In this document: positions 7,567 through 39,914 of the stretch, in pieces | Layout: every line of letters starts with the position of its first letter | Numbering within the stretch: position 1 is the stretch's first letter | Sequence record: LC494302.1 | Length of the DNA stretch: 64,000 nt | From: Escherichia phage SP27 | Reading direction: 5' to 3' (one strand) | Position numbers and translations under genes: made by a program | Notes under the pieces: generated by a model | The model's input: only the letters and a program-made list of their open reading frames with translations | What the model was told of the DNA's origin: nothing | Database searches by the model: none

Positions 7567-7741
7567 GACATTTGATGAGTGGTTTAATCTACACTATAAT
7601 ATAAATGCAGCAGATATATACTATTTTAAGCTTGAATTGTATATATCATTGCGTAACCCAATTGAGTACTATAACAACATTATCAATTGTGATGATTTTG
7701 GTACATATTTTAGTATAGCCGTTATGGATATTAAGAGATGA
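7556..7741 (+). CDS. hypothetical small protein
   Basis: 61 aa ORF. Confidence 0.3.
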   Translation: MQPKTFDEWFNLHYNINAADIYYFKLELYISLRNPIEYYNNIINCDDFGTYFSIAVMDIKR

Positions 7742-7917
7742 CACATGAAGAATGGATGGCAATGATGAAAAAACGTTATGACCAGTTTGGAAATGGATTT
7801 ATTGATGGTCATTTCGATATTTTACGAGACAAATATAAGTTCGAATCATATGTACTAGATGAGAATGGAAATCGTTGGTTCATCTATGAGCTTGCGGTTA
7901 GAGACAAAAAAATATAA
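7738..7917 (+). CDS. MTHEEWM-family small protein
   Basis: 59 aa ORF starting MTHEEWM; paralogous to four others in window. Confidence 0.45.
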   Translation: MTHEEWMAMMKKRYDQFGNGFIDGHFDILRDKYKFESYVLDENGNRWFIYELAVRDKKI

Positions 7918-7995
7918 TAACCTTTTCCATTGTCCATTGCAATGCTTTCTTTACAGAAGAATAAATGAAACACTTAATTGAACTGGATACATAAA

Positions 7996-8172
7996 ATGAC
8001 ACATGAAGAATGGATAGAGTCACTAAAATATAAACATGATCATTTTGGATTTGGTATACGCCAAGGCCATTATGATGTTTTGAACGATAAAAAAACGTTC
8101 GAATCATTGGTTTTGGACGAAGATTCCAACCACTGGTTCATCTACGAGCTTGCTATTAGAGATAAAAAATAG
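7996..8172 (+). CDS. MTHEEWM-family small protein
   Basis: Starts MTHEEWI; ends WFIYELAIRDKK like paralog at 7738. Confidence 0.45.
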   Translation: MTHEEWIESLKYKHDHFGFGIRQGHYDVLNDKKTFESLVLDEDSNHWFIYELAIRDKK

Positions 8173-8177
8173 TAAGA

Positions 8178-8513
<336 letters not shown>

Positions 8514-8514
8514 A

Positions 8515-8697
8515 ATGACACACGAAGAATGGATGTCCAAACAGCATAAAGAACATGACTGCTTTGGGAATGGCATTCGTCAGGTACATTATGATATATT
8601 AAGAGATGAAAATCTTTTCAGGTCATATGTTTTGGATACCAGAAAACCCTGGTTTATATGCGAACTGGCATTTAGAAAGTCAAATAATCAAAACTAA
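8515..8697 (+). CDS. MTHEEWM-family small protein
   Basis: Starts MTHEEWM, paralog. Confidence 0.45.
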   Translation: MTHEEWMSKQHKEHDCFGNGIRQVHYDILRDENLFRSYVLDTRKPWFICELAFRKSNNQN

Positions 8698-8713
8698 ACA
8701 AGGAATACAAAAA

Positions 8714-8932
8714 ATGGAAACAACTTTATTTGAAGTTATTCAATCATTAAAACCTGAAGATGAGGTTCAAGTACTACTACATGGTTATCGTGTAAAAGGT
8801 ACTGTGGTTTTAGTCAATGATACAACATTGGTTATTACAGAAACAAACCCATATGATAGTAATCAACTTGCCAATATCCATATCGATATCACTGGAATTA
8901 TTGGTGTCGGTGTATCTAAAACACTTGCATAA
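8714..8932 (+). CDS. hypothetical protein
   Basis: Start at METTLFE after AAGGAA RBS; 72 aa. Confidence 0.4.
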   Translation: METTLFEVIQSLKPEDEVQVLLHGYRVKGTVVLVNDTTLVITETNPYDSNQLANIHIDITGIIGVGVSKTLA

Positions 8933-8985
8933 ATCATTAATTCATTATATAATGATTATCACTGGTTCTAGATGAGGATAATATT

Positions 8986-9258
8986 ATGCATTTTGAAAAA
9001 TTCAACGTAAATCGTAACACACGCATTGAAGTTCTTTATGAAACTCAAGACACCATTAGTATTCGTACAAGTAGTGGGGATGTATATCATGACTGTACGA
9101 TTGGCTGGGAACAGGGAAGAACGCGTAGTGCAGTATTTGATAATTATCGCTTTTATCAAGGAGACACTACGATTTGGCCTGAATACGTAGAAGATATTGC
9201 GTTTGAAGATGAACATAAAGATGAATTTATCAAATTTAATCCTCAAACTGAATCATAA
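8986..9258 (+). CDS. hypothetical protein
   Basis: 90 aa, GAGGATAA RBS. Confidence 0.4.
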   Translation: MHFEKFNVNRNTRIEVLYETQDTISIRTSSGDVYHDCTIGWEQGRTRSAVFDNYRFYQGDTTIWPEYVEDIAFEDEHKDEFIKFNPQTES

Positions 9259-9275
9259 ATAATGGGACATCACAT

Positions 9276-9391
<116 letters not shown>

Positions 9392-9395
9392 AAAT

Positions 9396-9497
<102 letters not shown>

Positions 9498-9502
9498 AAA
9501 CC

Positions 9503-9663
9503 ATGACGCATGAAGAATGGATGAATGACATTAATTTTAGATATGCAGGTTTCGGTAACTGGAGAAAGTATCATTGGGAAATCATGTCAGACCCAGCAGA
9601 ATACGATAAACTTATAAACCATGAAGCGTATCCGTGGTTCTTTATTGAAATAATGGTACGAAC

Positions 9664-9667
<4 letters not shown>
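9503..9667 (+). CDS. MTHEEWM-family small protein
   Basis: 54 aa starting MTHEEWM. Confidence 0.4.
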
Positions 9668-9829
<162 letters not shown>

Positions 9830-9837
9830 AAAAAAAG

Positions 9838-10247
<410 letters not shown>

Positions 10248-10251
<4 letters not shown>

Positions 10252-10281
10252 CTAAATAATTCAGTACTGAGGATATTAATA
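10248..10281 (+). promoter_or_regulatory. promoter-like element with CAGTACTG
   Basis: TTGACTaaataatTCAGTACTGagg; weaker -10. Confidence 0.35.
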
Positions 10282-10308
10282 TGTTTAAAGATGAACGTCC
10301 AGATTTGT

Positions 10309-10356
<48 letters not shown>

Positions 10357-10379
10357 ATCAGACGTATATGGTGTAAGTT

Positions 10380-10700
10380 ACGTCGATGCAATCCAGAACA
10401 AGATCTCTGGTACTCTAGGAAGTGGTGAATGTTAACCTAGACGGGTTTGATAATTGGACGATAGGCAATTATTACTTGACTAGCAGGTTGAAACTAGAGG
10501 TGACAGTCCTTCACCAAACTGGAAAACCGGATGGACTTTTATTTAAAAGGGTAAGGCGTGGAAATATGTTTACAGAAGTTGCTTTTAGTAGCCTGTACGC
10601 CCCACGTCAAGGTAGCCGAAAGGCAAGTTAAAACGGATGGTTATAAAGCTGAATTAACAGCGGCGTTTAAAAGCGTCACCATCCATTTTTTTAATTAAAG
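10380..10700 (+). ncRNA. candidate structured RNA (unclassified)
   Basis: GC-richer ~320 bp behind a promoter, no convincing ORF, GAAA-looped hairpins (GTAGCCGAAAGGCAAGT) and GGATGG...CCATCC closing stem. Confidence 0.3.
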
Positions 10701-10708
10701 TTGGTGAT

Positions 10709-11473
<765 letters not shown>

Positions 11474-11491
11474 TTCACATGATATAGGGTG

Positions 11492-12161
<670 letters not shown>

Positions 12162-12180
12162 AGAGGTACTTCGAGTATGC

Positions 12181-12304
<124 letters not shown>

Positions 12305-12307
12305 ATA

Positions 12308-12394
<87 letters not shown>

Positions 12395-12449
12395 GACTGC
12401 CAAACAGCTTGAAGTACTTTGTAGTGCTGCACCTATGCCGACACTTGGC

Positions 12450-12550
<101 letters not shown>

Positions 12551-12562
12551 TATCTTACTTCT

Positions 12563-12652
<90 letters not shown>

Positions 12653-21910: not shown

Positions 21911-22332
21911 GAGGCTATAATAAGATTTGTATTTTTGTATTTTTAGTTTGTGCATTCAATTCGTTTGGTTACTACTGTACAGAAAATAATATTTCATATG
22001 GTTTAAATCCTTTGTGGTTTACAATTTCCAATGTAGCACAAATTGGTATTGCTCTTATGTCTGCACTTATGTTCTGTCCAATTGTCACTATGGATACGGA
22101 TCATGAAAGGCTTGGATTTCTCCGTGATACTGGAGACGAACCTTACAGTAGATTGATTGTGTTGTATCCATTTATTGTTATTTTAGGTACTAACATCCAA
22201 CTTGGGTCATTATCTAATAGTGTTACATCAGCAGCTATTGCTATATTTGCATTCACATTTTTTATGGTACACAAATCAGTACTTAATTGGTATATCACAA
22301 AAATGGCAGAAGAAGGTACTAAAAATACTTGA
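21907..22332 (+). CDS. multi-TM membrane protein
   Basis: 141 aa, hydrophobic, ATGA-coupled. Confidence 0.45.
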   Translation: MRGYNKICIFVFLVCAFNSFGYYCTENNISYGLNPLWFTISNVAQIGIALMSALMFCPIVTMDTDHERLGFLRDTGDEPYSRLIVLYPFIVILGTNIQLGSLSNSVTSAAIAIFAFTFFMVHKSVLNWYITKMAEEGTKNT

Positions 22333-22357
22333 CATAATTTAGTATGTTATATATAAT
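22329..22357 (+). promoter_or_regulatory. sigma70-like promoter
   Basis: TTGACA, 17 bp, TATAAT. Confidence 0.5.
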
Positions 22358-22649: not shown

Positions 22650-22679
22650 TTGACATAACAAATAATATGGAGTACAATG
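22650..22679 (+). promoter_or_regulatory. sigma70-like promoter
   Basis: TTGACA, 18 bp, TACAAT. Confidence 0.45.
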
Positions 22680-22717: not shown

Positions 22718-22978
22718 ATGAAATCTATTCTCGTTGCAGTTAACCTAGTTGCTTCCCCATCTTTCAACTTCAAACAAGTGGTTGCTGATAATCTGAAGAA
22801 GATCTGTCCAAACGCTGAATTAACTTTCTGTGTGTTTGATTCAGAAAAAGTAACTAAAGTTGATCTAAACTATCTTTTGAACGAAGTAAAAAGCGTTTCT
22901 GGTGAAAGTAACTTAAAAGTTCTTCATGATATTGCTGATGATTATGATGATACACTTGTAATTTCGGAGAAATTCTAA
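22718..22978 (+). CDS. hypothetical protein
   Basis: 86 aa, AAAGGAAA RBS. Confidence 0.45.
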   Translation: MKSILVAVNLVASPSFNFKQVVADNLKKICPNAELTFCVFDSEKVTKVDLNYLLNEVKSVSGESNLKVLHDIADDYDDTLVISEKF

Positions 22979-22983
22979 ATAAA

Positions 22984-23403
22984 ATGTTTAGATTTCTTCA
23001 GTACTTAATCATTAAATTTTTTGGCTATTATACGATTGAAGGCAAAGCTACACTCGCACATAGAATCTTTGTAGCATTATGTACGGGTGATTATGACGTA
23101 TTGAATAAGTACTGTAAATCTAAAGCATGTATTGATATAATGGCACTTCGTATCTATGAGTGCCGTTCCAATAGATACAATTTTTACCAATACAGATTTG
23201 ATGAAAAAGAATTTGATAGCATCAAAATGCTTAAGAATTTATGTAACAATAAAAAGAATATGCATATATCAGAATTTGTTGCTTTGTATTTTTATTTAAA
23301 AAGTTCATTGTATATGAACACAATGCAAAGATTCGATACTAGAATTAATGTATTCACCGATAAAGAATTTTATATATACGATAAATTCTTAGATAAGGTT
23401 TAA
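22984..23403 (+). CDS. hypothetical protein
   Basis: 139 aa ORF. Confidence 0.45.
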   Translation: MFRFLQYLIIKFFGYYTIEGKATLAHRIFVALCTGDYDVLNKYCKSKACIDIMALRIYECRSNRYNFYQYRFDEKEFDSIKMLKNLCNNKKNMHISEFVALYFYLKSSLYMNTMQRFDTRINVFTDKEFYIYDKFLDKV

Positions 23404-23404
23404 T

Positions 23405-23902
23405 ATGACAACTGTTTATATTGATAAACGATTAAATTTATTGATTACCGATTCTAGAGTTACGTCAACTATACCACGAAACTTATTTGGTTTTTTCCCA
23501 CTAAGACCAAAATATCAATATGGAGTTGTTAATCAAAAAACTTTATATGTACATGACCGTTTATTCAGTGCTAGTGGGGTAGTAAGTGAAATTGATAAAG
23601 TACTGGATTGGTTAATTAATAAAGTACCAGTTATACCTGACAGAAAGTTAAGTTGCCATTGTGTGCTTCTTTCTAAAGATTATGTTATTCATATGATTTT
23701 AACTAAAGGAAAGTTTATTAAAAAACTTGAATATCTACATGAAGACTACACTTTCTTTATGGGAAGTGGTGGAGAATACATGCTAGATGCTGCTATTCAT
23801 GAAGAACATACAACTTTATATGATAAAGTGTTTAGTACTTTCATGGATGTGCACAACCATGATTGCTTCACAGATGATAATATTAATGTATATCGATTTT
23901 GA
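23405..23902 (+). CDS. hypothetical protein
   Basis: 165 aa, TAATATG-coupled. Confidence 0.5.
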   Translation: MTTVYIDKRLNLLITDSRVTSTIPRNLFGFFPLRPKYQYGVVNQKTLYVHDRLFSASGVVSEIDKVLDWLINKVPVIPDRKLSCHCVLLSKDYVIHMILTKGKFIKKLEYLHEDYTFFMGSGGEYMLDAAIHEEHTTLYDKVFSTFMDVHNHDCFTDDNINVYRF

Positions 23903-23923
23903 TTTCGTCATTAGGAGATGTAA

Positions 23924-24889
23924 GTGAAAAAGCTTGATTTAAATACAATTGCCGAAGAAGTTCTGGATGAATGTTTTGCTAATGAAGAAGTCAACACACT
24001 AGAAGCCTTAGATTTCGTTGAAGATAAAGATGATAATGAAGGTAAAGTACAAAGCAGTTTCAAATATAATATTACACTTAAGCGACCACCAAATGTTTCC
24101 AATGAAGATCTAATTCGTGATATTCAAGCTGGTATCAATGTAAAGAAAAACACTGAACTGTTAGTTCGTTACAATTATGGACTGATTATTGATGTAGCAA
24201 GTAAATGTACTTGTTATATCCCATTTGAAGATAAGATTTCATATGGTGTTGAGGGGTTCATGAGAGCACTAAAAACCTTTGATCTTAATAAGAATGTTAA
24301 GTTCATTACCTATGCTTCTTCTAGTATTTACATGACAGTCTATAACGAAAGTTCTGACGCTAACTATATGGTACACTTCCCACGTTATATGAGTGTTCAT
24401 AAGATCAAAGTAAAAAGATTCTGCCAGGAATATATGCGTAAACATGGTGTTCGCCCAACACCTGAAATAATCTCAGAGGGTACTGGGATTGAGATTCAGC
24501 ATGTTAATAATTGTTTATTATTTCAAAGCGAATACACTTCACTGGATGCACCATTAGACGGTGTTACAGATGGTACATTAGGTGACATTATTCATTCACC
24601 TGCTTCTGATTTTAACCTCAATGTTGATAGTATCCGTGCACCTTTACGTTATGCTATCAATGAACTGACTAACGAATTGAGTACTAAAGAACGTGAGATT
24701 ATCCAGCGTGTTCATGGTCTAGGTGAATATGAACCTGAAACGCTTCGTGAGATTGCTGATAATGGTTTTGTTGATGATAATGGAAAATATGTTAAATCCC
24801 GTTCATCAATACACCGAAAGTACAGTGAAGCTATGCAAAAGCTTAAGAAGTTAGTACTTGCAAAAGGGTACGAATACGAAGATTTCTAA
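23924..24889 (+). CDS. sigma-70-family RNA polymerase sigma factor-like protein
   Basis: GTG start after TAGGAG; region-2-like LLVRYNYGLIIDVASKC...GVEGFMRALKTFDLNKNVKFITYA; region-4-like ELSTKEREIIQRVHGLGEYEPETLREIA. Confidence 0.6.
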   Translation: MKKLDLNTIAEEVLDECFANEEVNTLEALDFVEDKDDNEGKVQSSFKYNITLKRPPNVSNEDLIRDIQAGINVKKNTELLVRYNYGLIIDVASKCTCYIPFEDKISYGVEGFMRALKTFDLNKNVKFITYASSSIYMTVYNESSDANYMVHFPRYMSVHKIKVKRFCQEYMRKHGVRPTPEIISEGTGIEIQHVNNCLLFQSEYTSLDAPLDGVTDGTLGDIIHSPASDFNLNVDSIRAPLRYAINELTNELSTKEREIIQRVHGLGEYEPETLREIADNGFVDDNGKYVKSRSSIHRKYSEAMQKLKKLVLAKGYEYEDF

Positions 24890-24894
24890 AGAAC

Positions 24895-24925
24895 AAGGGT
24901 TGGCTTATGCCAACCTTTTTTTTAT
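24895..24925 (+). terminator. intrinsic terminator
   Basis: GGGTTGGC-ttat-GCCAACC plus T8. Confidence 0.65.
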
Positions 24926-24929
24926 GGGA

Positions 24930-25540
24930 TGAAGTAAAAGTTTGTGATATAATTATCTTGTACAATTCTGTTGGCATGATATTCATGTACCTGATCCACT
25001 CGAAAACGTAGAGGGCAGTTGAGCAGTCCGACAGTGCGAACAGCAAAAGAAACCCGTTAGATGTGGGCATAGTTTGAACCCCTCACGGCAATGCGGCTGT
25101 ATAAAGAACCACGTTAGGATAGCTGGTGGTTCCTTGATAGACATATAAGGATAACACCTTACGAATTATCTAAGGGAGAGTTATCGAATTTTGTACAGGA
25201 AAGTTGCGTCCAAAATTTGAGTACTCACATTAAGTATTTGATTGCATAGATACTTAATGAAGATACACTATGTTTAAAAGTGTAGACCGTCATATGAAAC
25301 TGAAGTAGAGAGAAACAGGATGACCCGCTTTCGCACTCGTTATGAGTAATCTTCAATGCAATAGCTCTGATACCATCAGCGTCAAATTTCCCTCCTTGTG
25401 GGGGGAAGAAAAATCCCTTCCTCAAATCCCGTCAATATTAAAAGTCCTTGACAGTTATTAATCATTCGCGTAGAATACGTAGTATTAGAAGCGAACAGAC
25501 ATCTCGAAGAGATGGATGATTAACCATTAAGGAATATCAA
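24930..25540 (+). ncRNA. ~600-bp non-coding, GC-richer segment; candidate structured RNA
   Basis: No plus-strand ORF of 60 aa or more, local GC clearly above neighbours, ends in promoter TTGACA-17-TAGAAT. Confidence 0.3.
25448..25476 (+). promoter_or_regulatory. sigma70-like promoter
   Basis: TTGACA, 17 bp, TAGAAT. Confidence 0.5.
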
Positions 25541-36094: not shown

Positions 36095-36210
36095 TTTAAC
36101 TTTGGGACAACCATTCTTATTATGATATAATGTTTTATGTCATTCGATATAAATGACAAACGGAACTATAAATATTATAGTAAAATTTATCTCTTATAGG
36201 AGTTATAAAA

Positions 36211-36594
36211 ATGGTTGATAAATGGAATAAGAAAGATCCATCACATGATGTTGATATTTCTGGTCTAGACAATGCACATAAGCACAAGTATCTAGATTCA
36301 CTAGGTCTTCTAAAACCAGACCAAAGTCTTGCACATGATCGTCCATCCCGTGAAAAAGCATTTAGCCTAGAATCACTAGGTCATGAGCTTAATCGTGTGT
36401 TTGAGGATCACCCAATCTATGTACGTGATATTATCGAGAAACTTAAAGTAACTCCTAAAGAGCACTTTAAAGCAACTGTACACTCTGCATTCCGTGCATT
36501 ACATGAATCTCTAAAGAAAACTCACAATCTTCGTAAAATTCATGATGAAATCGTGAATGCAATCGAAAGTGAAAAACATAAGTTCAAGAAGTAA
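36211..36594 (+). CDS. hypothetical protein (SLGLL-motif, paralogous domain with 36840)
   Basis: 127 aa, TAGGAG RBS; motif YLDSLGLLKPDQ. Confidence 0.5.
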   Translation: MVDKWNKKDPSHDVDISGLDNAHKHKYLDSLGLLKPDQSLAHDRPSREKAFSLESLGHELNRVFEDHPIYVRDIIEKLKVTPKEHFKATVHSAFRALHESLKKTHNLRKIHDEIVNAIESEKHKFKK

Positions 36595-39207: not shown

Positions 39208-39244
39208 AAAAGGGTTGACTTCGGTCAGCCTTTTTTGTTATGAT
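39208..39244 (+). promoter_or_regulatory. PeSL-like terminator/promoter hybrid
   Basis: AAAAGGGTTGAC-ttcg-GTCAGCCTTTTTT; TTGACT-18-TATGAT. Confidence 0.6.
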
Positions 39245-39272
39245 GTTGATATTAACTACAGAGGATAAAGTA

Positions 39273-39914
39273 ATGACTAAGCAAGAAATATTCAAAACTT
39301 TAATTGACATTTTGCGTCCATCAAAAACTCGTTGTGCGATGGAGTTTGATATTCCTTATGCTGAACGCGTAATCTTTCCACAAGTTAAAGCTGCTGGACT
39401 TACTTTGCTTGGAATGGGGATGTACTCTGTAGTAGTTGAACATAAAAACTATCCTGGACGAGCATTTAAAGTAACCACTTCACGCTGGGATGGTTTTCGT
39501 GCTTATGCAAAGTACTGCATTGAAAACGCAGGAACCAAGTTTCTTCCAGTGATCTACAGTGCCAACGAACAAGGAAACTTTGGATGGTATGAGATGGACA
39601 AGTACTATCCTATAATTAAACAAAAAAATAATTATGATGACTTTGTTAGTACTAAAATTGGAGATTTATATTCTTATGCACATGCTGGTCAGTACGCTAC
39701 TTCAGTGAATGATATGCGTGGAAATTCTGAAGAGATTGCTATTGCGACGGTCGCTGCTAACATCATGAAAGAGTTTCACGGGCGTTTTGTACCAGACATT
39801 CATTCAAGTAATGTAATGATGGATAAAGATGGGAATGTATTCATTACTGATCCTCTTTCGTGTGATGTGCGTAGAGAAATACCAATTACTGAAGAAGATC
39901 CAGTTTTTTATTGA
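39273..39914 (+). CDS. atypical kinase-like protein (tentative)
   Basis: Start at MTKQEIF after GAGGATAAAG; DIHSSNVMMDKDGNVFITDP resembles HxDxxxxN catalytic loop and metal-binding D of APH/choline-kinase-like kinases. Confidence 0.4.
   Translation: MTKQEIFKTLIDILRPSKTRCAMEFDIPYAERVIFPQVKAAGLTLLGMGMYSVVVEHKNYPGRAFKVTTSRWDGFRAYAKYCIENAGTKFLPVIYSANEQGNFGWYEMDKYYPIIKQKNNYDDFVSTKIGDLYSYAHAGQYATSVNDMRGNSEEIAIATVAANIMKEFHGRFVPDIHSSNVMMDKDGNVFITDPLSCDVRREIPITEEDPVFY

Follow-up and report, generated by a model that had tools for sequence, protein, structure and literature searches.

A 64,000-nucleotide stretch of the Escherichia phage SP27 genome (LC494302.1), hereafter the window, carries on its plus strand an open reading frame (ORF) of 321 amino acids whose product is almost certainly a sigma-70-family transcription factor with a partial region 1.2 and regions 2, 3 and 4. 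We propose, with confidence evenly divided, that this factor of the RaK2-like phages redirects the host core RNA polymerase (RNAP) to a middle class of promoters within a three-tier transcriptional cascade. The gene is already known and annotated in RaK2-like giant coliphages; what is new relative to the literature is the analysis of its recognition residues, an insertion in region 4.2, and a promoter assignment for Asteriusvirus.

The ORF encodes a sigma-70-family factor

The landmarks of the gene and its product are listed below.

23924..24889, plus strand: ORF of the sigma-70-family factor, 321 amino acids, GTG start
23913..23917, plus strand: Shine-Dalgarno sequence AGGAG, 6 nt 5' of the GTG start
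Residues 1-55 of the product: N-terminal motif MKKLDLN..EVLDECF and acidic disordered linker
Residues 59-70: region 1.2, C-terminal part only
Residues 79-148: region 2
Residues 154-199: region 3, followed by a linker
Residues 241-314: region 4, with a beta-hairpin insertion at 280-291 and the recognition helix from 292

The GTG start is supported by the N-terminal sequence MKKLDLN, which is kept in orthologues from other genera. Among the Pfam models, Sigma70_r3 (PF04539) matches residues 162-226 above its gathering score (37.8 versus 25.3 bits, E=2e-9), and Sigma70_r2 (PF04542; residues 80-140, E=7e-5) and Sigma70_r4 (PF04545; E=3e-5) fall within about 1 bit below theirs (23.0 versus 24 and 23.8 versus 24.1 bits, respectively). 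The region 4 match is confined to residues 251-279 because the insertion splits the helix-turn-helix (HTH) of that region. At the level of the whole protein, the sigma-70 superfamily model TIGR02937 reaches its threshold (44.7 bits against a curated cut-off of 42.9); NCBIfam RpoD_Cterm matches across residues 79-283 (E=6e-25), and PHROG_351, 'RNA polymerase sigma factor', across residues 1-317 (E=2e-60). A phmmer search of solved structures returned sigma chains only (RpoD, SigA, SigB and RpoS; best E=7e-17).

With 26 family members as input, AlphaFold gave a model with confident domains for sigma2 (residues 60-148, pLDDT about 88), sigma3 (154-199) and sigma4 (241-314, with helices at 254-264, 274-280 and 293-314, pLDDT 79-89), preceded by an acidic N-terminus that is predicted to be disordered over residues 1-50. 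When this model was used as a Foldseek query, the top matches were sigmaS and sigmaA initiation complexes (E of about 1e-11 to 1e-8 over 250-290 columns), with alignments to sigma chains reaching 284-303 columns. An initial annotation, made from the sequence alone, had called the ORF a sigma-70-family protein from region-2-like strings (residues 79-95 and 108-131) followed by a region-4.1/4.2 string (residues 248-278); the strings do stand in this order in the product, and Pfam, NCBIfam, PHROG, phmmer and AlphaFold all bear out the assignment.

Comparison with the established sigma groups sets the protein apart from several of them. Equivalog-level models for RpoD (group 1) are not reached (TIGR02393, 88 versus 354 bits; NF004208, 64 versus 555 bits), and the Pfam models for regions 1.1 and 1.2 have no match in the ORF, so that the region 1.1 and full region 1.2 of a group-1 factor are not found; the GenBank label 'RpoD' appears unsupported at this level. 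Region 3 is the strongest Pfam match, which separates the protein from the extracytoplasmic function (ECF, group 4) sigmas, and the presence of regions 3 and 4 separates it from the gp55 type, to which it is not detectably homologous. Judged from these comparisons, the factor appears to be a derivative of cellular group-1/2 (RpoD/RpoS-type) sigmas.

The factor belongs to a distinct phage clade

Exhaustive phmmer/HMMER searches (a word-indexed search reached only 47% identity) placed the protein in a distinct clade of about 18 cluster representatives, which align over their full length at E<=4e-29. After a gap, the next matches are generic bacterial sigmas (E>=6e-20), and their alignments break off midway through region 4, near residue 279. 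Residues M1, K2, L6, F18, G281, D284, G287, K288 and R298 are conserved throughout the clade. The ORF product shares with the other members, within PHROG_351, the N-terminal motif MKKLDLN..LDECF and the region-4.2 insertion, and its gene likewise lies in an early region of small genes in a genome that also encodes a gp55-like sigma.

The 5 kb around the sigma gene are 98-99.4% identical in nucleotide sequence to JP4, SHEFM2K, phAPEC6, 121Q and PBECO4, which are members of Asteriusvirus, jumbo myoviruses of about 350 kb in the RaK2-like group. The same gene is found in PBECO4 and as 121Q gp167, phAPEC6 gp066c, Sharanji WNN14470.1 ('RpoD'), RaK2 ORF244, GAP32_490 and CBB_513; amino acid identity to the SP27 product is 99-99.7% in about 20 Asteriusvirus records, 44% in RaK2, 35% in GAP32 and CBB, and 31% in the Xanthomonas phage XbC2, with further orthologues in PHA46 and in Erwinia, Yersinia and Serratia phages. 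Asteriusvirus records label the gene 'RNA polymerase sigma factor' or 'RpoD subfamily RNA polymerase sigma-70 subunit'. It is mentioned in the phAPEC6 (PMC7247149) and Sharanji (PMC11895373) papers and in the literature on UE-S1 and fEgEco12; the CBB paper describes an orthologue with regions 2, 3 and 4 in the early region (PMC5259590), and according to Iyer et al. (2021) a minimal sigma is encoded by the 'group 2' jumbo phages, some of which have a fuller, RpoD-like factor as well (PMC7824862). Because the gene is annotated in relatives and mentioned in several papers, the presence of such a sigma, as initially stated, was already known. The literature searched holds no experiment on the gene and no transcriptome or in vitro work for the RaK2-like group, the sole related RNA-seq study being that of PA5oct (PMC7318152).

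The initial annotation had further contrasted a fuller sigma here with T4, which relies on the small gp55. This contrast fails: Asteriusvirus also carries a gp55-like 'sigma factor for late transcription' as a separate gene (phAPEC6 gp237c, 278 amino acids), which matches cyanophage gp55, and the RpoD-like sigma is thus an extra tier rather than a substitute. In the Klebsiella phage fENko-Kae01, the record of the gp55-like sigma (L016 501-1346) bears the flag 'identified with LC-MS/MS analysis'; this late sigma may be virion-associated, which would bear on a model of timing.

The -10 pocket is probably kept and region 4.2 is remodeled

We aligned the clade with residues 373-613 of Escherichia coli sigma-70, using a reference sequence whose numbering agrees with the Protein Data Bank (PDB) alignment (query residues 74-279 correspond to chain residues 373-578) and in which W433 and W434 are placed correctly. 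The roles attached below to individual sigma-70 residues (contacts with -12, with the extended -10 TG and with the -35, and core binding) are those of the general sigma-70 literature. Across the 26 members, N84, D103, F127, T129, Y130, A131 and P153, the equivalents of N383, D403, F427, T429, Y430, A431 and P453, are invariant or nearly so, which is consistent with a retained TAnnnT-type pocket; the protein probably still reads a -10 element of this kind. The W433/W434 dyad is replaced by S133/S134 at a position that varies across the clade (SS, TT, AA and others), with WW in 0 of 26 members, a loss that is not unprecedented, the dyad being absent from functional group-3 sigmas as well (FliA and SigF, for example). 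Other promoter-contacting positions have changed as well (Q437 to M137, T440 to Y140, H455 to Y155, E458 to V158, E585 to S294 and R588 to H297), again in departure from group 1. In regions 2.4 and 3.0, the R436/Q437 pair is Y/M in Asteriusvirus and kept as R/Q in GAP32, CBB and XbC2, T440/R441 is Y/N, the H455 position is Y or H across the clade, and E458 is not conserved.

Within region 4.2, an insertion of 5-8 residues relative to sigma-70 (N280-K291, with G281, D284, G287 and K288 conserved in the 26 members) lies between the two HTH helices and is predicted by AlphaFold to form a beta-hairpin (pLDDT 79-89). The recognition helix beyond it reads SRSSIHRKY where sigma-70 reads TRERIRQIE, keeping R584 as R293 and changing E585, R588 and Q589. 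Judging from these residues, the -35 specificity of the phage factor should differ from that of sigma-70.

The sigma gene lies in an early-type transcription unit

The gene is the last of four tightly packed ORFs, arranged as follows.

22329..22357, plus strand: early-type promoter TTGACA-N17-TATAAT, a perfect sigma-70 consensus, 5' of the sigma gene block
22650..22678, plus strand: early-type promoter TTGACA-N17-TACAAT, the nearest 5' of the four-gene unit 22718-24889
22718-22978, 22984-23403 and 23405-23902, plus strand: three co-oriented, tightly packed ORFs 5' of the sigma gene
24895..24918, plus strand: intrinsic terminator that begins 6 nt past the stop codon of the sigma gene, with a 10-bp stem (5 GC pairs) and a T8 tail

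With consensus sigma-70 promoters 5' and a strong terminator 3', the gene is laid out for early synthesis, and the arrangement suggests that the unmodified host holoenzyme transcribes the unit early. The window holds 31 near-consensus sigma-70 promoters, all but one of them on the plus strand among small genes. A search of the sigma operon for cofactors found no Pfam match, only function-unknown families in PHROGs and no recognizable transcription factor; ORF 23405-23902 has a weak HslV-peptidase-like PHROG match (9e-6). In GAP32, CBB and XbC2 an HTH 'transcriptional regulator' lies two genes 5' of the sigma gene (L003, L004 and L005, about 2020-2250), for which no recognizable counterpart exists in the Asteriusvirus sigma operon.

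A middle-type promoter class is the candidate target

We surveyed 200 kb of phAPEC6 by tabulating the hexamers found 16-18 nt 5' of TATAAT. Besides TTGACA, a second box stands out, within the pattern (A-rich)TG[AG]GACAA-N12-TGnTA[TC]AAT, which we call middle-type. The strict pattern occurs at 10 sites, all on the gene strand, as compared with 1 match in 20 simulated genomes. Eight of the 10 sites fall in the region of replication, recombination and head genes, and 35 early-type promoters fall in the 67-kb small-gene region. Middle-type sites precede the genes for gyrB/topoisomerase II, a DnaB-like protein/primase-helicase, ssb and DNA polymerase, and one lies directly 5' of the gp55-like late-sigma gene. 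The T4-late-type motif (T)ATAAATA precedes genes for the major head protein/capsid, scaffold, protease, portal, baseplate wedge and terminase. The genome carries three promoter-like classes: early, middle-type and late. Three classes have likewise been predicted in CBB and GAP32, where the second is TGAAACG..TGnTATAAT, also found before the gp55-like gene, and the TAAATA-type class is assigned to late genes (PMC5259590 supplement).

The window contains three middle-type matches at <=1 mismatch, against 0.09 expected. Its sites of this kind, strict, hybrid and weaker, are the following.

4606: hybrid middle-type site
9263..9291, plus strand: strict middle-type promoter TGGGACAT-N12-TGaTATAAT, 11 nt 5' of tRNA-Ser(TGA) at 9302
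24925..24953, plus strand: weaker middle-type promoter TGGGATGA-N12-TGaTATAAT, reading into an ORF-free stretch
36103..36131, plus strand: strict middle-type promoter TGGGACAA-N12-TGaTATAAT, 80 nt 5' of ORF 36211-36594

The promoter at 24925..24953 has a position weight matrix score of 18.5, as opposed to 29-39 for the training sites. We infer that the TGrGACAA-N12-TGnTATAAT class would be the best candidate target of the phage sigma. The suggestion in the initial annotation that the factor reads one of the repeated promoter types of the window could hold in modified form for this class; the two types it had singled out, promoters with the word CAGTACTG and the cassette of a gene array, fit other classes, and that choice of targets was probably wrong.

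Three candidate elements were rejected. The TGAAACG box of CBB is not enriched in the window (8 sites versus 7.4 expected), Asteriusvirus using TGrGACAA. The word CAGTACTG occurs 38 times against 0.8 expected, a 46-fold excess, but 33 of these copies lie outside promoters, and the five promoters with the word in their spacer all have canonical TTGACA/TATAAT hexamers, which disqualifies it as a sigma-specific promoter element. Its enrichment stems from an excess of AGTACT throughout the genome. In the window AGTACT itself has 192 copies (9x) and AGTACTG 94 (19x; for example at 1197, 7432 and 61267), mostly inside genes, and the window has no copy of GGTACC (7.4 expected) or AGCGCT (2.7 expected). 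The excess could reflect a site of methylation or restriction avoidance, or one bound by a protein. AGTACT also builds the stems of the terminators (GCCAGTACTtgATACTGGC) in the gene array listed here.

49850-63974, minus strand: array of 12 RCC1-repeat paralogues of 250-430 amino acids, RCC1 annotation from phAPEC6

The third candidate, the array cassette, consists of a terminator hairpin, a T-run and then GTATTAAATATAGTATAATGAATAAAGGAGG; it is identical before eight of the 12 genes and has no -35 hexamer. Its TAAATA core matches the T4-late-type motif and places it in the late class, and we rejected it as a target of the RpoD-like sigma in favor of the late, gp55-type class.

A conserved structured RNA follows the sigma gene

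The stretch entered by the promoter at 24925..24953 contains a structured RNA.

24962..25408, plus strand: conserved structured non-coding RNA of about 450 nt, core 24988-25387, with a 3' GC hairpin at 25387-25408
Other copies: L010:854-1262 (minus strand), L011:16863-17269, L012:16647-17106, L002:3506-3892 and L019-L033

Most GenBank records annotate nothing, or only tiny ORFs, in the 650 bp after the sigma terminator. In Ecwhy_1-type phages, nucleotide identity over the same 650 bp is 96.5% and amino acid identity of the sigma protein 59%; by this comparison the stretch is better conserved than the sigma gene itself. The RNA is about 70% identical across genera and occurs at 3-5 places per genome. 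Another 15 loci came from a search of IMG/VR. RNAalifold, applied to an alignment of 15 non-redundant copies (60-94% identity), predicts 88 pairs, of which 50 show compensatory changes. In this alignment 97.4% of cells pair, as compared with 81% after shuffling and about 42% with slid partners, and the covariation score is 0.47 against about 0.06 in controls. Single-sequence folding gave unimpressive z-scores (-1.3 and -1.6), comparative analysis alone having revealed the RNA.

Rfam has no family for the window copy or for six other copies, and the RNA is apparently undescribed in the literature searched. Some of its invariant blocks may vaguely recall the conserved regions of RNase P RNA, a resemblance unsupported by Rfam. 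The second phAPEC6 copy lies directly 3' of a strict middle-type promoter, and the copies in EJP2 and Serratia BF also come after middle-type promoters, as did every copy that was inspected; RaK2 has the same order of sigma gene, promoter and homologous RNA (nhmmer E=2e-28). From this placement, the RNA is likely a product of the candidate middle-type class. No homologue was found at the PA5oct-like locus, which was searched.

Promoter boxes track the phage factor across genera

All enterobacterial RaK2-like genera carry both an RpoD-like and a gp55-like sigma, with near-identical record counts, whereas 11 records of PA5oct-like Pseudomonas phages contain the gp55-like gene only, with no RpoD-like sigma even at E<=10. 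The promoter 5' of the late-sigma gene, which adjoins a conserved TATAAATAC late promoter that points the opposite way, offers a comparison at one orthologous site. Its box is TGGGACAA or TGAGACAA in Asteriusviruses, TGGGACAA in fENko-Kae01, TGGGATGG in Hallingskeid, TGGAACG in Serratia BF and CBB, and TGAATAA in RaK2, in each of these sigma-bearing phages at the same spacing to (TG)nTATAAT. In the PA5oct-like phage Ettore, the orthologous promoter is an ordinary TTGACT-N17-TAAAAT. The box moreover tracks the region-4.2 helix: RSS[IL]HRKY goes with TGrGACAA, RGTLHYKF with TGAAyAA, and KATLSRRY with TGrAACG. This circumstantial pattern fits a cellular sigma that, once captured, would have preserved its -10 pocket while its -35 specificity and its promoters drifted in concert.

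These observations lead us to propose the following cascade. Early in infection, the host sigma-70 holoenzyme would transcribe the sigma gene from its consensus promoters. Once made, the phage sigma would bind the host core RNAP and direct it to (A-rich)TGrGACAA-N12-TGnTATAAT, the conserved region-2 pockets reading the TATAAT-like -10 and the remodeled region 4.2, with its beta-hairpin insertion and altered recognition helix, reading the non-canonical -35 box. The middle class would then switch on replication and recombination genes, some tRNAs, the multi-copy structured RNA and the gp55-like late-sigma gene, whose product would act in a late tier at TATAAATA promoters. The more elaborate version, a three-sigma cascade whose middle sigma has a TATAAT-type pocket without the tryptophan dyad, a new hairpin-based -35 specificity and the role of a sigma replacement for MotA/AsiA, we advance only tentatively, doubting it slightly more than we credit it. 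The matching set of -35 boxes (TGrGACAA in Asteriusvirus, TGrAACG in Mimas- and Eneladusvirus, and TGAAyAA in RaK2) belongs to this version and has the same standing, just short of even confidence.

Alternative explanations

Several observations weigh against this cascade. The middle-type -10 (TGnTATAAT) is a perfect sigma-70-type extended -10, and the Asteriusvirus box contains GACA at the proper distance, so the host sigma-70 holoenzyme could plausibly use the class unaided. The phage sigma is without the TG readers (H455/E458, here Y/V) and the -12 readers (Q437/T440, here M/Y), a poor fit with the strictly conserved TGnTATAAT, and the core-binding residues Q406/E407/N409 are S/Y/V and not conserved. 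The phyletic contrast goes back to one evolutionary event only, and the co-variation of box and helix could come from simple divergence. A tblastn search with T4 AsiA (a query validated by 100% matches to T4-like phages) found no AsiA-like gene in RaK2-like genomes among the 30 of 1173 records listed, where the matches were in 155-175-kb genomes only; this negative is soft, resting as it does on those 30 records, and MotA was not searched. The same features support an alternative that we consider unlikely but deserving of serious attention, in which regions 2.4 and 3.0 of host sigma-70 bind TGnTATAAT, aided or gated by a phage activator or appropriator at the box, and the RpoD-like sigma has other targets. 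Sigma appropriation is familiar in T4-related phages, and the HTH regulator of GAP32, CBB and XbC2 would suit such a role. Under this account, nevertheless, the conserved sigma would lack a promoter class and the conserved class would lack a factor; moreover, the Asteriusvirus sigma operon holds no recognizable transcription factor, no AsiA-like sequence appeared in the matches listed for RaK2-like genomes, and the sigma-less clade has an ordinary TTGACT/TTGACA box at the orthologous promoter.

The best database matches of the factor, RpoD and RpoS, together with the retention of R584 as R293, the roughly 30 near-consensus promoters and a gp0.7-type kinase in the window, could instead indicate a surrogate housekeeping sigma that keeps TTGACA-N17-TATAAT promoters, including those with CAGTACTG spacers, running after sigma-70 is disabled or RNAP modified. 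We regard this as improbable: the -35 residues (E585, R588 and Q589) and the -12/TG residues are replaced, the HTH carries an insertion, only five of 38 CAGTACTG words lie in promoters, and the early promoters beat almost any host promoter in their match to the sigma-70 consensus, as expected if the host factor reads them. A decoy that occupies the host core RNAP, or acts on another partner through its N-terminal motif, to shut down host transcription would explain why the W433/W434 melting dyad and several residues for core binding and DNA reading are missing, and would account for the conserved N-terminal motif and acidic disordered linker. It is very improbable, given that selection has preserved regions 2, 3 and 4 in genera whose proteins share 30-45% identity, that the A-11-pocket residues are invariant, and that group-3 sigmas function without the dyad. 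Recognition of the minus-strand array cassette (49.8-64 kb) is barely credible; the repetition of the cassette and its want of a -35 hexamer speak for it, but its TAAATA core is common to the capsid, scaffold, protease, baseplate and terminase promoters, is served by a dedicated gp55-like sigma in the genus, and belongs to the class assigned to late genes in CBB and GAP32.

Other elements of the window

The remaining features of the window are these.

7735-9683, plus strand: AAAATGACACATGAAGAATGGAT, five copies, 87-100% identical (repeat families D10, D11 and D14)
8200-12642, plus strand: tRNA cluster of Gly, Ser-TGA, Ser (anticodon ACT according to ARAGORN), Met, Asn and Thr
33351, 36594, 36777, 38120, 39205, 43700 and 44982, plus strand: fused terminator-promoter cassette AAGGGTTGACTTCGGTCAGCCCTTTTTGnTATAAT, about 50 nt
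39240-39914, plus strand: T7 gp0.7-type protein kinase (PHROG 15752, 'inhibitor of host transcription', E=1e-98; no Pfam match)

The kinase suggests that host RNAP may also be modified during infection. In the fused cassette, the -35 hexamer TTGACT lies inside the terminator stem and the T-run forms the spacer; the AAGGGTTGACTTCGGTCAGCCCTTTTTGnTATAAT hairpin recurs among the terminators listed around the CBB sigma gene (Torf515/518/520). The tRNA cluster is served by early-type promoters with CAGTACTG spacers and by the middle-type promoter at 9263. ARAGORN and Rfam disagree on the tRNAs at 8200-8272 and 9396-9474, and the AAAATGACACATGAAGAATGGAT copies lie at the starts of small paralogous ORFs among the tRNAs.

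Relation to known systems and significance

The phage sigma resembles E. coli RpoD and RpoS in its domain order (1.2-2-3-4) and finds its best sequence and structure matches there, but has neither region 1.1 nor the non-conserved region. By inference it would share the logic of SPO1 gp28, the middle factor of a system with gp33/gp34 as late factors, in which an early phage sigma replaces the host factor on the host core and opens the next class, late-factor genes included; the SPO1-type Bacillus phage sigmas are, however, remote (E of about 1e-5 to 1e-2 over 23-50% of the query), and their hosts and motifs differ. The gp55/gp33/gp45 system of T4 belongs to the same broad phage lineage, and Asteriusvirus likewise combines a gp55-like factor with late promoters of the TATAAATA type, but gp55 is a minimal, region-2-only sigma whose counterpart is phAPEC6 gp237c. 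The candidate middle class is akin to that of T4 MotA/AsiA in combining a sigma-70-like, often extended, -10 with a non-canonical box in place of the -35 before replication genes, although T4 remodels host sigma-70 and brings no new sigma. In phiEco32, the sigma-70-family factor gp36 steers E. coli core to phage middle and late promoters; it is group-4-like and without the region 3 that is clear in the present factor.

The outcome for the gene is that the vague label 'likely mediates transcription of phage genes' gives way to a testable cascade hypothesis with named promoters. If the hypothesis is true, the factor would supply an orthogonal sigma/promoter pair working in E. coli and a natural case of -35 specificity re-engineered through an insertion in the region-4.2 HTH. 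The RpoD-like factor would then be the missing middle tier for 350-kb phages that have about 550 genes and no RNA polymerase of their own.

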